From IMG/VR virus record IMGVR_UViG_3300026488_000017, positions 1 through 40,395 of that record: a stretch of 40,395 bases of DNA; one strand, 5' to 3'. The stretch is from a virus (Duplodnaviria; Heunggongvirae; Uroviricota; Caudoviricetes). The notes under the pieces were generated by a model. That model saw only the letters and a program-made list of their open reading frames with translations. It was not told where the DNA came from and searched no databases. Below are positions 9,841 through 19,381 of the stretch, in pieces (position 1 is the stretch's first letter; every line of letters begins with the position of its first letter). Both the position numbers and the translations under genes were made by a program.

Positions 9841-10314
9841 TTATAAGTATTTATACTCATCATTATTGTTATTTGGGTGAACTACATCATCTTCAGTCCA
9901 GACAATACTTTTCAAATAGTCTGTATAGTCATTGTCAAACCATTTATCTCTATTAAGAATCTCTGGTTTCTGTGTCTGGTAACTAAAATTTAGTTTGTTC
10001 CCAAAATGTAAGTTTCGTGATAATTTTAATTGTTTTGCTGTTAGAATCGTTAATGTTTTGGCAAATAATTCTTTTGATATGTTATTCTCATAAAGATTCA
10101 CGAGTGCAAAAGCATTGTCATTAAGACGGACTAAACCTTTAAGTGCAGTTATCTTTTTGCCTTTAATTTCTCTTTGTATAATAATTTCAATTTCAATCGT
10201 ATCATCGAACACGAAAGGTTTATTATTATAATTTCTTGAATTGAAAGCATTAATAGTATGTTCATTAATACTTAAACTTTTTAATTTTATGTTCTTATAT
10301 AGTAAACTAGGCAT
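9841..10314 (-). CDS. Hypothetical protein, 157 aa
   Basis: ORF track; GGAG RBS; overlaps upstream ORF. Confidence 0.7.
   Translation of the reverse strand: MPSLLYKNIKLKSLSINEHTINAFNSRNYNNKPFVFDDTIEIEIIIQREIKGKKITALKGLVRLNDNAFALVNLYENNISKELFAKTLTILTAKQLKLSRNLHFGNKLNFSYQTQKPEILNRDKWFDNDYTDYLKSIVWTEDDVVHPNNNNDEYKYL
9848..9855 (-). promoter_or_regulatory. T4-type late promoter TATAAATA
   Basis: Exact match, embedded in the Y-K-Y codons of the upstream ORF. Confidence 0.65.
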
Positions 10315-10638: not shown

Positions 10639-12111
10639 TTAAGAGTAAAGAGCTACTAAATCTTTCCAACGAGAAAGACCAGATTTTTTAAGTATGATAC
10701 CAAGAGCGAGAGCTCTAACAGTAACTTGTTTTGCTTTTCTAGCATATTCAGGAGTCATATAGTTAATTTTAACCTCTTCTCCACCTTCATCACCTAGAGC
10801 TTCTAAGATTTCATCAATATCTGCATCATTAATGTCACCTCTTTTCTTAGCTTGAGCATAACCGATAGAACGAACTCTTTTAAGAATATCTTGTTCTGCT
10901 AAATAAACATCAACAAAAATACTTCTTGACATAATAGCACCTTCGATTTGGCTTGATTTCATATTACTAATGAATACCATACCACCAGTGAATTGAAATT
11001 TACTAGGTAGCTTAACATCTTTCTTACCAGCACCAATAGGCTTACCTTCAGCTATCTCTGCATCTACGAAATTACAATAGTCTTCAATAGAACCTTTATC
11101 AAGACCTACCATATTTTGTGTACCTGACATATACTCAGCCATATTATCACCTGATGTATCAAGGATAGGCTTAAGCATCATAATAATGTCTTTGTGTTGT
11201 AAGACTGAATCTGCTTCATCAAATACGATAATCTTGTTTCTCTCTTGAAATAATGTCTTGTAGAATGCATATGGTGCTGCTTTGGTACCACTGTGATAAG
11301 TCCACTTATCGCCTTCAGAACCTAATAAAGCTTTAAGACTTCTATCGCCTTCTGTAATATGATAAGTTTTACCAATACCACCTTGTCCACAAACGATAAG
11401 CGTTCTCCATTTTCCTGAAGCAACTACCGAAAGTAAATCTTCAATATCTTCAAAAACAGTATCCGGGTCAGCAAATACTTTTTGGTCTAAAGATTTCTCT
11501 ACTTCCTTAAGTCCACCTTCAAAAGAATTCGTTTCTTTCTCACCAAGAAAAACTTCAATTTGTTCTGAAAGACCTTTCTCTTGCGCTGCGTCTCTCATCT
11601 TTTGTTTAGACCCTGCTAATGAACGCTTAAGTCCATTTGCTTCTAACCATTCGATTTTTTCTTCTTTTGTTCTAGCTTCAAATAGAAATAATTTTGTTTC
11701 TTCAATAATCTCTGTAGCTTCGTTGATGTGACCAGTTTTAAGTGCATCTGTAATCTGCGAAAGAACCTGAATAACATTCAAGTTTGGAGCAAATTTAACA
11801 GTTCTTGTCGGTCTTTGAAAGTTAGCATTCGTATTATTCCAGTAGTCGATGCTCGTTAATAAGAACTGAGCTTTCTTAGCCATTTTTGCATCCCAATTAA
11901 AACGAACCATAATACCTTTATTGTTTACGAAACGATAACCTTTACCTTCGCCAGATTTTCTTTTGAAATCTTCCATACCTAGTGATACGAATATACCACC
12001 TAATTCTTTACCCATTATCTTACTGTAAAGTAAAACAACTTTTTCTAATTTTCCTTGACTGAATGCTAATTCATTCAGTTCCATAAAGGTGCCAAAACTT
12101 TTTGTTTTCAT
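10639..12111 (-). CDS. P-loop AAA-family ATPase with N-terminal extension (probable start at second Met, 12111)
   Basis: CGQGGIGKT, IVFDEADS, FISN, IMSRS; GGAG RBS precedes MKTKSFGTFMELNE. Confidence 0.82.
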   Translation of the reverse strand: MKTKSFGTFMELNELAFSQGKLEKVVLLYSKIMGKELGGIFVSLGMEDFKRKSGEGKGYRFVNNKGIMVRFNWDAKMAKKAQFLLTSIDYWNNTNANFQRPTRTVKFAPNLNVIQVLSQITDALKTGHINEATEIIEETKLFLFEARTKEEKIEWLEANGLKRSLAGSKQKMRDAAQEKGLSEQIEVFLGEKETNSFEGGLKEVEKSLDQKVFADPDTVFEDIEDLLSVVASGKWRTLIVCGQGGIGKTYHITEGDRSLKALLGSEGDKWTYHSGTKAAPYAFYKTLFQERNKIIVFDEADSVLQHKDIIMMLKPILDTSGDNMAEYMSGTQNMVGLDKGSIEDYCNFVDAEIAEGKPIGAGKKDVKLPSKFQFTGGMVFISNMKSSQIEGAIMSRSIFVDVYLAEQDILKRVRSIGYAQAKKRGDINDADIDEILEALGDEGGEEVKINYMTPEYARKAKQVTVRALALGIILKKSGLSRWKDLVALYS

Positions 12112-14995: not shown

Positions 14996-15066
14996 TGGAA
15001 CCCCTGGAAGTAATCGAAACTTCTCAAACGGCTTCGAAGGCCATTGTCTCATCCTCGAGCAGGGGC
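14996..15066 (-). tRNA. tRNA-Arg(TCG), atypical (reduced D arm, U53:A61)
   Basis: Acceptor GCCCCTG/CAGGGGT, loop CT-TCG-AA, T arm GAAGT-TTCGATT-ACTTC, encoded CCA. Confidence 0.7.
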
Positions 15067-15640: not shown

Positions 15641-15820
15641 TTATACTTGTTCCCAAGTCATTGGATATTTAATCCCTGGGTTGAATTCTCTTTGATAGTT
15701 CATAATCTCATAATTTCTACCAACTACTGTTGTTTCAATCATTGTATATGTTACATTATCTTTTTCTTTTGTAAATATTTCTGTATATTTACCTTTATCT
15801 CTTTTTTGTTCATCTTTCAT
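15641..15820 (-). CDS. Hypothetical 59-aa protein (probable start MKDEQK)
   Basis: AGGA RBS; start overlaps the HNH stop. Confidence 0.55.
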   Translation of the reverse strand: MKDEQKRDKGKYTEIFTKEKDNVTYTMIETTVVGRNYEIMNYQREFNPGIKYPMTWEQV

Positions 15821-16520
15821 TATCTTTCCTATTTGTTGTCTTACCGTTAAATCTAGGTTGTATAAGCATTTCATATCTTTTACAATTATATCTTTTCAGA
15901 ATATTTGTGAGTTTTGATGAATAGTATTCTTCATAAAATCCTTCTCTCAACATTTCTGCTATTGATTCAAATTTATTATCTTCTAAAGTATCTAATACTC
16001 TATTGACAAATTCAGTTTTTTCTTTTATATTAGTTTGTTTCTCCAAAAGTCTCTGTTCTCTATCACTTTCTTTTTTTGATTTACCAAACTTCATTTTACG
16101 ACCTTTCAACCAACCTTCGGGTATCTCACCTTTAGGTACTTTCTTTGACTCTTTTAGTTCTAAGTTATGAATCCACATAGTACCAAACTGTGAATTTCCT
16201 TCACCAGTTTGACTGCGACTCATTTCTTCACTAAACTTCTCTCTCAACCAACCGTACATACGATTCATTGACCTATCTTGACCCGTTCCTATAACACACA
16301 TCATACTTACAGCCTTTATAAGACTATATTTACCTGGATATATCTTTAGTAGCAGTATATGAGCAATAAAGTGTTCTCTTGCAGTTAATTCTACAAGATT
16401 TTCTTTATCATCTGTGCCATTCATACTTCTAGGTACTATATGGTGTATTTCTTTATAACAATCTAGCTTTCTATTTTTACCTCTTAGAATGAGTTTTTCA
16501 TAGTGCAATTTATAATTCAT
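15810..16520 (-). mobile_element. Free-standing HNH homing endonuclease gene inside the tRNA array
   Basis: EIHHIVPRSMNGTDDKENLVELTAREHFIAH; own late promoter TATAAATA at 16549-16556. Confidence 0.88.
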
Positions 16521-16945: not shown

Positions 16946-17018
16946 TGGTTGCTCTGAAGGTATTCGAAACCTTTTCAGTAAGTTATGAGCCTACCGTCCA
17001 AACCTTATGGTCAGAGCA
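16946..17018 (-). tRNA. tRNA(CAT), atypical (reduced D arm, U53:A61), Met- or Ile2-type
   Basis: Acceptor TGCTCTG/CAGAGCA, loop CT-CAT-AA, T arm AAGGT-TTCGAAT-ACCTT, CCA. Confidence 0.7.
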
Positions 17019-17025
17019 TTGTTTG

Positions 17026-17064
17026 TTTATTTTAGTGTCTTCATTGACATCGGATTTCTTGCCC
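17026..17064 (-). promoter_or_regulatory. Conserved post-terminator element, copy 1 (GGGCAAGAAATCCG-A-TGTCAATGAAGACACTAAAATAAA)
   Basis: 14-nt and 24-nt blocks identical to 19032-19075. Confidence 0.85.
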
Positions 17065-17102
17065 AAAAAAAAGGGAGTCAATTCAATTAAGAACTGACTC
17101 CC
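17065..17102 (-). terminator. Intrinsic terminator of attenuator 1
   Basis: 12-bp stem GGGAGTCAGTTC/GAATTGACTCCC, 6-nt loop, U8 tail. Confidence 0.92.
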
Positions 17103-17134
17103 TTTGAGGAAAACTTTTATTTAAGTTCTCTTCA

Positions 17135-17221
17135 TCAGAAATCAGTTCCACTACGGCTCAGCATCAGGCTATGTCTTAATATACTACATAATATTGTTAA
17201 GTTATTTAATGCTGTTCTCAT
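17135..17221 (-). CDS. Leader peptide 1, MRTALNNLTILCSILRHSLMLSRSGTDF (28 aa)
   Basis: GAGGA RBS; early (17296-17317) and late (17248-17255) promoters upstream; codons match the downstream tRNA anticodons. Confidence 0.85.
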   Translation of the reverse strand: MRTALNNLTILCSILRHSLMLSRSGTDF

Positions 17222-17345
17222 AATGTTTCCTCTGTTTAATTTTATTGTATTTATAAGAGTCAAAAACTCTATATACTATCTCTCTTTATGTATGTATTAT
17301 AACATAAAGATACTTAATTTTCTCTTAATACTCAAAAAAGATTTA

Positions 17346-17810
17346 CTATTTTGAATATCTGTCGGCTGCACAACTTGCAGCCCAAGCATTTGGTTTACAA
17401 ACAGGCTCGATGCCTACCATTCCCCATATCATACCTTTTGCTGCTCCGTGAGCAACATTTGAACCAGTTCCTTCGACAGGATTTACATCTAAGTGAATCT
17501 CGAAGTCTTTGTCCATTAAAACATCTTCTAGTTGATTATAAAGTTCTGTAACAAGTTGTACTTCTTTCATCATCCGATTAAATGGTCTACCAAGGTTTGT
17601 ATCTTTTACATCTTGATATTGTACATCTGTAAAGATTTTAGCACCTTTACCTATACCATTTTCATCGTGAAAGTGTATAATAACTACTGTCGCAAATTTA
17701 ACTCTTTTTTTCTTCATTCGTTGTGAATCGACCCCAAGATAAATCCTAGCGTCTTCATTTTTGTTTATAAAGTTCTTAATGAACTCAACTTCTTCTTTAC
17801 TGTGTGCCAT
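17346..17810 (-). CDS. RNase H-like protein, YkuK/DUF458 family
   Basis: IYLGVDSQ, FATVVIIH, EIHLDVN, KPNAWAASCAAD. Confidence 0.85.
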   Translation of the reverse strand: MAHSKEEVEFIKNFINKNEDARIYLGVDSQRMKKKRVKFATVVIIHFHDENGIGKGAKIFTDVQYQDVKDTNLGRPFNRMMKEVQLVTELYNQLEDVLMDKDFEIHLDVNPVEGTGSNVAHGAAKGMIWGMVGIEPVCKPNAWAASCAADRYSK

Positions 17811-18022: not shown

Positions 18023-18297
18023 TTTTATCCTTTATGTCGAGACCGTTGTCCCTTTGTAGGTTTCTAATACCATCCAGGCTATTGTGCTTTGAACTCATTA
18101 CTGAATACACAAATTGTTTTCTTCCTAGCTTACATCAAGCCAAATCGAGGTAATACTACTCTGTACTTCTGTATCTACAATAAATTGTAGTGTATCTATT
18201 CATAACTTAGGGTTCCATACCATAGAGTCTTTAAGAGGTTGAAACTATCTCTGTCTTGTAGTATTATGGTTATTATATCTATTTTTTACTTAATTTT

Positions 18298-18372
18298 TGG
18301 TACTCGATGAAAGAATCGAACTTTCTACCATTTCTAAGTCAAAGAAACACTCTACCATTGAGTTAATCGAGC
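18298..18372 (-). tRNA. tRNA-Val(GAC)
   Basis: Canonical stems, loop TT-GAC-TT (unusual U37), A73-CCA. Confidence 0.88.
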
Positions 18373-18375
18373 ATA

Positions 18376-18450
18376 TGGAGCGAAAAATGGGCATCGAACC
18401 CACAACCTTCTGATTGGCAACCAGATGCTCTACCATTGAGCTACTTTCGC
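18376..18450 (-). tRNA. tRNA-Gly(GCC)
   Basis: Canonical cloverleaf, U73-CCA. Confidence 0.95.
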
Positions 18451-18456
18451 ATATTT

Positions 18457-18530
18457 TGGAGCGGGTACGGAGAATTGAACTCCGGTCTTCTGGTTGGAAA
18501 CCAGTGGCTCTACCATTGAGCTACACCCGC
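18457..18530 (-). tRNA. tRNA-Gly(TCC)
   Basis: Canonical cloverleaf, U73-CCA. Confidence 0.95.
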
Positions 18531-18543
18531 ATATTCTAACATT

Positions 18544-18676
18544 TGGAGCGAATAGAAGGATTTGAACCTTCAAAATATTTTTAGTATCAGTTTAGTTTTC
18601 CTAGTACTCTCTTAATCAGGCTAACCCATTTTTCTTAGTACTAATAAACCGTGTTTACCAGTTTCACCATATTCGC
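18544..18676 (-). ncRNA. 133-nt tRNA-like RNA with a 50-nt insert in place of the anticodon loop
   Basis: Intact acceptor GCGAATA/TATTCGC, D arm, variable arm, T arm and CCA; anticodon stem GTTTA/TAAAC encloses 50 nt. Confidence 0.8.
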
Positions 18677-18681
18677 ATTTT

Positions 18682-18756
18682 TGGTACTCGATGAAGGAAT
18701 CGAACCTTCTACCTACTCCGTGTAAAGGAGGTGTTCTACCAGTGAACTAATCGAGC
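18682..18756 (-). tRNA. tRNA-Val(TAC)
   Basis: Canonical cloverleaf, A73-CCA. Confidence 0.94.
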
Positions 18757-18770
18757 ATATTTTCTATCTT

Positions 18771-18844
18771 TGGCAGGCGTACGGTGAATCGAACACCGGG
18801 CAAAGGATTTGGAATCCCTTATTTTACCACTAAACTATACACCT
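18771..18844 (-). tRNA. tRNA-Trp(CCA)
   Basis: Loop TT-CCA-AA, G73-CCA. Confidence 0.93.
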
Positions 18845-18848
18845 ATAA

Positions 18849-18932
18849 TGGAGGACCCTAGAGTAATCGAAACCCATAGTTTAACCTATCCATCGGGTTC
18901 AAACCGACTTTGCTACCTCAGCGGTAGAGTCC
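18849..18932 (-). tRNA. Atypical tRNA-Ser(TGA), possible 8/4 acceptor/T-stem fold
   Basis: GGACTCTA/TAGGGTCC 8 bp, T stem GGGT/ACTC 4 bp, loop TT-TGA-AC, variable hairpin ATAG/CTAT. Confidence 0.7.
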
Positions 18933-18939
18933 ATATTTT

Positions 18940-19027
18940 TGGAGGATGATGTGAGACTCGAACTCACAACGCTTTTGACACGCAATGGCTTTCAAAACCA
19001 CCTGACTCCCATACTGTCGAATCATCC
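18940..19027 (-). tRNA. tRNA-Ser(TGA)
   Basis: Type II cloverleaf, loop TT-TGA-AA, U73-CCA. Confidence 0.9.
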
Positions 19028-19031
19028 ATCT

Positions 19032-19075
19032 TTTATTTTAGTGTCTTCATTGACAACCTCACGGATTTCTTGCCC
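19032..19075 (-). promoter_or_regulatory. Conserved post-terminator element, copy 2 (GGGCAAGAAATCCG-TGAGGT-TGTCAATGAAGACACTAAAATAAA)
   Basis: Identical blocks to 17026-17064. Confidence 0.85.
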
Positions 19076-19112
19076 AAAAAAAAGGGATTGAATTCAAAAT
19101 GAACCCAATCCC
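19076..19112 (-). terminator. Intrinsic terminator of attenuator 2
   Basis: 12-bp stem GGGATTGGGTTC/GAATTCAATCCC, 5-nt loop, U8 tail. Confidence 0.92.
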
Positions 19113-19137
19113 TTAATAAACTATTGTTTATTAAAAA

Positions 19138-19248
19138 TCAGGTTACGAGCATCCCCACCGACCATAGGCCAGCGAATACACTAGCAGAAACTACGGATTC
19201 ACTTGTATGCGATAATGTATCTATTAAGACTAAGTTTAATTTTGTCAT
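19138..19248 (-). CDS. Leader peptide 2, MTKLNLVLIDTLSHTSESVVSASVFAGLWSVGMLVT (36 aa)
   Basis: AGGAG RBS; early (19278-19299) and late (19327-19334) promoters upstream; rich in Ser(TCN)/Val/Gly/Trp codons matching the downstream array. Confidence 0.85.
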   Translation of the reverse strand: MTKLNLVLIDTLSHTSESVVSASVFAGLWSVGMLVT

Positions 19249-19381
19249 TGTGTTTCTCCTATTTGTTTTTATGTGTAATTATATCGTAAAGTTACTTAAT
19301 TTCTACTTAACTTCTTAATATGTCTATATTTATAACACATTATATAAGCTTCCTAAAAAGTCTATATACTATGTTAAATCA

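Follow-up and report, generated by a model that had tools for sequence, protein, structure and literature searches.

The leaders of the amino-acid operons of Escherichia coli and Salmonella, such as trpL, hisL, leuL, thrL and pheL, consist of a short open reading frame (ORF) led by a Shine-Dalgarno (SD) sequence, an intrinsic terminator and a mutually exclusive antiterminator. Their regulatory codons lie shortly before the stop codon, where a ribosome masks one strand of the antiterminator. One leader can sample several amino acids, as in ilvGMEDA (Ile/Val/Leu) and thr (Thr/Ile), and the pheM leader places pheST, a target belonging to the translation apparatus, under attenuation that reads the charging of the cognate tRNA. 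T-box riboswitches likewise answer tRNA status with a terminator/antiterminator switch. Phages T4 and T5 have clustered tRNA genes with their own promoters, with small ORFs interspersed in the tRNA region of T5; we know of no codon-matched leader-terminator switch described for either cluster, and a literature search found none. To our knowledge, the regulation of phage tRNA genes is largely unknown and no tRNA operon is known to be under leader-peptide attenuation. Here we describe attenuator 2, a candidate switch of this type preceding a tRNA gene array (array 2) of a tailed phage, and its paralogue, attenuator 1, which precedes array 1. Both lie in a stretch of 40,395 nt from IMG/VR record IMGVR_UViG_3300026488_000017 (the window, whose positions serve as coordinates throughout), which belongs to a phage contig of 105 kb and 33% G+C from a hydrothermal vent, called W below.

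Our preferred reading, held with moderate confidence, is that array 2 is gated by a codon-sensing, ribosome-mediated leader-peptide transcription attenuator. We regard it as quite likely that a ribosome-dependent attenuator, whether codon-sensing or general, operates at this locus. Both statements draw on sequence features, predicted alternative folds, conservation, covariation and codon statistics. The locus departs from its closest counterparts in several respects. Amino-acid operon leaders control biosynthetic enzymes, whereas tRNA genes stand downstream here and the sensed molecules would be the operon's own products. Those leaders carry a run of codons for one amino acid, whereas a mix of several is found here; they share no sequence or Rfam similarity with the present module, which in addition is phage-encoded and has no detectable 1:2 anti-antiterminator. 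The ilvGMEDA and thr leaders sense amino-acid supply for a shared pathway, whereas the set sampled here is that of the downstream tRNA genes. The target of pheM attenuation is a synthetase, responding to one amino acid and residing in a cellular genome, unlike the phage module. No published description of codon-matched attenuation of tRNA genes was found, and a full-text literature search returned no report in which tRNA genes, or the tRNA arrays of phages, are attenuated.

A first-pass annotation of the window, made from the sequence alone, had described a 36-codon leader with an AGGAG ribosome-binding site at 19248-19138, a 12-bp stem followed by a U8 tract, and a 19-bp hairpin with one bulge in which the stop codon sits and which sequesters the 5' arm of the terminator. 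All of these elements were recovered (Table 1). The AGGAG lies 7 nt 5' of the ATG, and the terminator stem has 13-15 pairs around a 12-bp G+C-containing core, followed by T8 at 19083-19076. The 5' arm of the terminator (segment 3) occupies 19114-19100 and its 3' arm (segment 4) 19096-19082. The hairpin holding the stop codon folds from 19144-19126 into the 5' arm with a predicted energy of -14.6 kcal/mol, and the inner hairpin fits the terminator fold and the antiterminator fold alike. The CUGAUUU noticed in both leaders at this position is indeed present in each, in different reading frames. The first tRNA of array 2 begins 48 nt past the U8 tract.

Related metagenome contigs, found via the neighboring YkuK and clamp proteins, brought the set to seven modules in five genomes: two each in W and L034 and one each in L045, L046 and L049. 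L034 is syntenic with W (clamp 79% identical), has both modules and is the one relative in which the attenuator 1 paralogue recurs. L045 and L046 (clamp 77% and 73%, respectively) each carry module 2, and a profile search with the leader peptides yielded a fifth leader 2 peptide (P0141). L049, a contig of a more distant T4-like phage (clamp 58%), holds a third module class at 11230-11884, whose promoter elements match those of the other modules, whereas its leader, stop codon and stems are unrelated to theirs. The leader has 39 codons, many of them for Asn, Ile, Lys, Glu, Gln, Tyr and Phe, and is followed by a UAA within the antiterminator strand, a strong terminator and tRNA-Tyr(GTA), where the contig ends. 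By leader composition at least three classes are seen: Gly/Trp/Ser/Val, His/Arg/Ser/Leu/Cys/Met and Asn/Ile/Lys/Glu/Gln/Tyr/Phe.

A fold of three parts (stop-codon strand, inner hairpin and terminator) is common to all seven modules. The stop-codon strand (AACCUGAUUU in module 2, GAACUGAUUUCU in module 1 and ACUUAAACA in L049) pairs with the terminator 5' arm over 9-13 bp in every case and encloses the inner hairpin, which recurs at the same place with a different sequence each time. Predicted energies range from -12 to -26 kcal/mol for the antiterminators and from -14.6 to -23.5 kcal/mol for the terminators. Partner bases vary among modules, with G-U, A-U and G-C interchanged, and both pairings are preserved; the terminator stems also show compensatory changes between modules. 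When the whole upstream leader was searched for the segment that pairs best with the 5' arm, the stop-codon strand was returned in six of seven modules, the exception being module 2 of W, in which a slightly better alternative partner is present. In 7/7 modules segment 2 contains the UGA or UAA, internally or at its end, and three reading-frame registers are represented, which argues for selection on the end point of the ribosome and not on the end of the peptide. The annotation had rested part of its case on two independent copies, which attenuators 1 and 2, as paralogues, are not; the attenuator architecture it proposed is instead strongly supported by this shared layout of seven modules from five phage genomes with differing sequences.

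By analogy with the trp and his attenuators, the module would work as follows. RNA polymerase would initiate at the 19299-19278 phage promoter, with a probable further start at the late-type promoter of 19334-19327, and the 36-codon leader would be translated while the polymerase proceeds. Segment 2 (AACCUGAUUU, which includes the stop codon) and the terminator 5' arm could then form the antiterminator, as the alternative to the terminator hairpin with its U8 tract. Both antiterminator strands are transcribed before the 3' arm of the terminator, and the default would be read-through into the tRNA genes. A terminating ribosome covers roughly 12 nt beyond its A site; from this geometry we infer that a ribosome reaching the UGA in time would mask segment 2 and free the 5' arm, and that the terminator would form and transcription stop. 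A ribosome delayed anywhere in the leader would leave segment 2 free, and the array would be transcribed. Delay would be likeliest 4-10 codons ahead of the stop, at the rare codons GGC, UGG, UCG, GUG and GGG; these would be decoded by Gly, Trp, Ser and Val tRNAs of the array itself, giving negative feedback on this tRNA group. Codon-specific stalling and feedback are modeled on the trp/his paradigm and the anatomy of the locus. The paralogous module 1 would play the same role for the His/Arg/Ser-AGY/Leu/Cys/Met array.

Translation of the leader ORF is central to this scheme. Each of the seven modules retains its start codon, with an SD at 5-7 nt. The leader frame is open in each, whereas the other two sense frames contain 1-8 stops; leader 2 itself is open in L034, L045 and L046 at 36-38 codons. 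Indels within leader ORFs are of 6 nt only, versus flanking indels of 2, 3, 5, 8, 9 and 12 nt. Second codon positions are the least changed (3, 9 and 8 changes versus 9-18 at first and third positions). From the SD, the open frame, the in-frame indels and the codon-position changes, we infer that the leader is translated. One antisense frame is likewise open in most modules; the corresponding ORF of W (19124-19318, plus strand) was judged an artefact, being interrupted in L046.

Alternative structures alone do not prove control by a ribosome, and the switch might instead be set by another factor, an RNA-binding protein of phage or host or a T-box-like binding of tRNA, with the ORF irrelevant. 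One could speculate that the UGGU in the G-rich codon block pairs with a tRNA 3' end. T-boxes, however, bind uncharged tRNA through a specifier loop and the T-box sequence, with no translation, and no such elements were detected here. A search for Rfam cis-regulatory families, including the T-box (RF00230) and the Trp, His, Leu and Thr leaders, found nothing, either at the gathering threshold or with E values up to 5 allowed. Control by such a factor would also leave the conserved SD, start codon, open frame, in-frame indels and stop position unexplained, and we consider it very improbable.

Codon content links each leader to the array behind it. The annotation counted 11 Ser-TCN, Val, Gly or Trp codons among codons 18-35 of leader 2 and stated that each tRNA of array 2 has a cognate codon in the leader; the count is correct, and the second statement holds for each called tRNA. 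Enrichment was assessed against the long ORFs of the contig under strict wobble, where array 2 codons make up 15.7% and array 1 codons 16.0%. Leader 2 has 11/35 own-array codons (p=0.016), or 13/35 when TCC/TCT are included (p=0.005), and 9/35 codons of the other array, which is not significant. In leader 1 the corresponding figures are 15/27 (p=3e-6) and 1/27. Among the 523 short ORFs of the contig, leader 2 ranks in the top 1-2% for own-array codons, and leader 1 has a run of eight own-array codons that is unique. The nine codons before segment 2 include five own-array codons in module 2 (p=0.007) and eight in module 1 (p=3e-6). The proposal that each leader is tuned to its own array gained support from a partition test as well as from the invariant codon block described below. 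In W the real 8+6 split of 14 anticodon species ties for the top with four others (5/3003, P=0.0017), and in L034, which has different arrays, the real split is among the best 2/330 (P=0.006). The match of leader 2 is convincing only together with leader 1, the partition test and conservation in the relatives.

Conservation is concentrated in codons 27-32 of leader 2, the block GGC CTA TGG TCG GTG GGG. GGC, TGG, TCG, GTG and GGG are nucleotide-identical in all four genomes that carry module 2 (W, L034, L045 and L046), whereas 30-60% of the other leader 2 codons are changed. Codon 28 is CTA in three genomes and TCG in L046, whose block reads GGC TCG TGG TCG GTG GGG and whose array has Ser, Trp, Val and Gly tRNAs. 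The block codons are rare in the phage (per 1000: GGC 4.6, TCG 5.5, GTG 6.4 and GGG 4.5). GGC would be read by Gly-GCC, and the G-ending codons by U:G wobble of Ser-UGA, Val-UAC and Gly-UCC. Across the three leader classes, G-ending codons account for 13/36 of the last codons versus 1/64 of the others. An exact-pattern scan of IMG/VR for the regulatory block plus stop codon gave no match.

Several observations weigh against codon-specific control of array 2. The overall enrichment of leader 2 is modest when taken alone (p about 0.005-0.02), and most of its nine array 1 codons fall in the N-terminal half, the region of homology with leader 1. Outside the block, relatives have Ile, Leu or Thr in place of the Val codons. 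The nucleotide invariance of the block could be explained by a local hairpin rather than by codon identity. Such a hairpin, at 19176-19154 in W, is predicted over the block in W, L034 and L045; it includes no part of segment 2, and attenuator 1 has no counterpart. As L046 does not form the same hairpin, the hairpin may not be the sole cause. L045 keeps the block, yet no Trp, Val or Gly tRNA follows the leader on its contig. Behind the terminator of L045 are a Ser-TGA-like gene, a CAT tRNA, an odd tRNA, an ORF and then Leu-TAG, Cys and Met genes, with an Rfam tRNA match at 10088-10160 that is perhaps Arg. From its gene order this array looks like a fused and reduced one, and the matching tRNAs may be elsewhere in the genome or recently lost. 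Folding found no segment 1 pairing with segment 2, and untranslated RNA would therefore always read through. Metatranscriptome contigs yielded tmRNA and tRNA pieces of relatives only, and none spans the leader. Substitutions in the leader peptides are conservative, and the hydrophobic leader 2 peptide may have a function of its own. Finally, the modules were found in a narrow clade only, other relatives with large tRNA arrays having none. Close relatives are absent from cultured phages and from IMG/VR, the cultured set giving generic tRNA matches and distant YkuK homologues. The relatives found through YkuK that were set aside (L001-L005, L018/L038, L040-L044 and L050) mostly show different contexts or arrays without terminators.

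Some of these points would fit a genuine attenuator that monitors overall translation speed or coupling, the codon match being secondary or accidental. In the absence of a segment 1, read-through would follow from a stall at any codon or from failed initiation, and tRNA transcription would rise whenever starvation, host shut-off or a ribosome-targeting defence slowed the ribosomes. A known leader that answers to general inhibition of translation is, for example, that of Bacillus subtilis bmrB-bmrCD. The modest enrichment of leader 2 and the retention of the leader in L045 without matching tRNAs nearby also accord with a general sensor. It does not account for an anticodon partition that is among the best possible in two genomes, for the unique run of eight own-array codons in leader 1, for the invariance of the rare-codon block or for three leader classes with three compositions. 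We regard a general sensor as unlikely, although a more serious contender than the other alternatives, and return to the codon-sensing attenuator as the preferred reading.

A promoter motif, TTAAG[TC]-N10-11-TATAAT, has 30 copies on the minus (coding) strand of the 105-kb contig and none on the plus strand, against 0.1 per strand in shuffled sequence. Most of the copies inspected are directly upstream of an SD and ATG, and copies precede the clamp gene, the tmRNA (transfer-messenger RNA) gene and both leaders, among others. The copy at 19299-19278 is a probable early/middle promoter of the leader-array 2 unit, judging by its sequence and position. The next copy starts at 18293, immediately beyond array 2. 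A second conserved element, consisting of ATAGTATATAGA(C/G)TTTT, a variable hairpin and then TATAAATA, is located at 19327-19373 and 17248-17275 (minus strand). It is found upstream of every leader, in W (both modules), L034, L045, L046 and L049, and its resemblance to T4 late promoters suggests that it is probably a late-type promoter. The annotation had recognized that a promoter downstream of the terminator would speak against attenuation; motif and sigma-70 scans between the terminator and the first tRNA found none of the 30 motif copies and no sigma-70-like site. On this sequence evidence, array 2 is reachable only via the leader and the terminator.

The interval is occupied by a post-terminator block composed of GGGCAAGAAATCC, a small hairpin (GUC-AAYGAA-GAC) and then UAAAAUAAA. 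A near-identical block is present behind attenuator 1 (17026-17068, minus strand), and these are the only two copies in the 105-kb contig. The block is kept in L034 and L045 and, with a compensatory change, in L046. It may serve as a site of processing or of binding. A sigma-70 promoter within it was ruled out, as the -35 spacing differs between copies. Exact-pattern scans of IMG/VR gave chance matches for a 17-mer and none for longer patterns.

These data bear on whether the leader is simply an ordinary gene for a hydrophobic protein of 36 residues, with its own promoter and terminator, the tRNAs being transcribed by leaky read-through or from an unrecognized promoter and the pairing being incidental. 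The 19 C-terminal residues of leader 2 are hydrophobic (grand average of hydropathy, GRAVY, 0.9-1.65), and a GxWSVG motif is kept, in line with the conservative substitutions noted above; the post-terminator block could moreover conceal a phage-specific promoter or processing site. However, that block is no general promoter motif, given its two copies and its unconserved sigma-70 spacing. Leaders 1 and 3 are not hydrophobic, and the peptides of the three classes are physically so unlike (GRAVY +1.0 to -0.7) that a shared peptide function is unlikely. Nor would a small-protein gene explain why rare synonymous codons are invariant, or why the placement of the stop codon in the antiterminator is kept in seven modules despite differing sequences, stop codons and frames. 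Furthermore, in a scan of 38 related loci, every strong terminator just upstream of a tRNA gene belonged to such a module. We therefore think it improbable that the leader is an ordinary small-protein gene.

A broader interpretation can be offered tentatively: the modules may form a modular family of codon-matched attenuators in giant phages, each class an independent homeostat for one tRNA group that reads decoding speed at rare wobble codons and switches on only the tRNA block missing from the infected cell, for example when host tRNAs are degraded or are cut by anticodon nucleases. If the codon-sensing reading holds, phages measure decoding speed directly and adjust their tRNA supply group by group, and phage tRNA arrays are linked to host tRNA depletion and to defences that target tRNA. 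Such modules would also represent compact, portable sensors of specific tRNA availability.

Table 1. Positions of attenuator 2, its flanking elements and its paralogue in the window.
Feature	Position	Strand	Remarks
T4-late-promoter-like octamer TATAAATA	19327..19334	-	inside conserved element ATAGTATATAGAC...TATAAATA
Phage promoter motif TTAAGTAACTTTACGATATAAT	19278..19299	-	TTAAG[TC]-N10-11-TATAAT copy, ~23 nt before leader ATG
Shine-Dalgarno AGGAG	19256..19260	-	7 nt ahead of ATG
Leader ORF 2 (MTKLNLVLIDTLSHTSESVVSASVFAGLWSVGMLVT)	19138..19248	-	36 codons + UGA
Invariant block GGC CTA TGG TCG GTG GGG	19153..19170	-	codons 27-32 of leader 2
Segment 2 AACCUGAUUUUU	19133..19144	-	antiterminator 5' strand; holds stop UGA (19140-19138)
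Inner hairpin UUAAUAAAC-AAUA-GUUUAUUAA	19113..19134	-	fits terminator fold and antiterminator fold
Intrinsic terminator hairpin	19082..19114	-	13-15 bp stem, -19.0 kcal/mol
Terminator U8 tract	19076..19083	-	T8 in DNA
Post-terminator block GGGCAAGAAATCC...TGTCAATGAAGACA (small hairpin)...TAAAATAAA	19028..19075	-	abuts first tRNA
tRNA array 2	18298..19027	-	Ser-TGA, Ser-TGA-like, Trp-CCA, Val-TAC, insert-bearing tRNA-like, Gly-TCC, Gly-GCC, Val-GAC
Attenuator 1 (paralogue, controls array 1)	17070..17317	-	promoter 17317-17296, leader 17221-17135
Attenuator 1 RNA parts	segment 2 17148-17137; terminator 17105-17070	-	from folding

On the minus strand, the genes of the locus are ordered UvsW-like helicase, sliding clamp, tmRNA (19739-19382), module 2 and array 2, followed by a 52-codon ORF, a YkuK/DUF458 RNase H-like gene, module 1 and array 1. 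The composition of array 2 given in the annotation stands for Ser-TGA, Trp, Val-TAC, Gly-TCC, Gly-GCC and Val-GAC. Its second Ser-TGA, at 18849-18932 (minus strand), is called only at a relaxed ARAGORN threshold and is 81% identical in L045. A further tRNA-like gene at 18676-18547 (Rfam tRNA, 43 bits) was missing from the list; it has an insert of ~45-60 nt after the anticodon-stem region and is called by ARAGORN as Phe(aaa) with an intron, at the relaxed threshold only. Two more such genes were seen on the same strand. One, with a CAT anticodon (16949-17018), lies directly behind attenuator 1, is 98.6% identical in L034 and had no match in an exact-pattern scan of IMG/VR. The other is an Arg-TCG-like gene (14996-15066), non-canonical and below default thresholds. 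The three non-canonical tRNA-like genes at 18849-18932, 16949-17018 and 14996-15066 are absent from default-threshold calls.

The YkuK/DUF458 RNase H-like gene (17346-17810, minus strand) sits between the two arrays. In several related phage contigs from metagenomes a homologue adjoins a tRNA array, and homologues are also encoded by Vibrio, Ruegeria, Synechococcus and other large phages; the protein may have a role in tRNA processing. Array 1 is interrupted by an HNH homing-endonuclease gene (15810-16520, minus strand), and the apparent array fusion in L045 is consistent with rearrangement in the region. The phage tmRNA (19382-19739, minus strand; tag ANTNTYTYEGALVA) has its own promoter and lies directly upstream of attenuator 2. 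In the relative L050, SmpB is encoded too (1332-1778).

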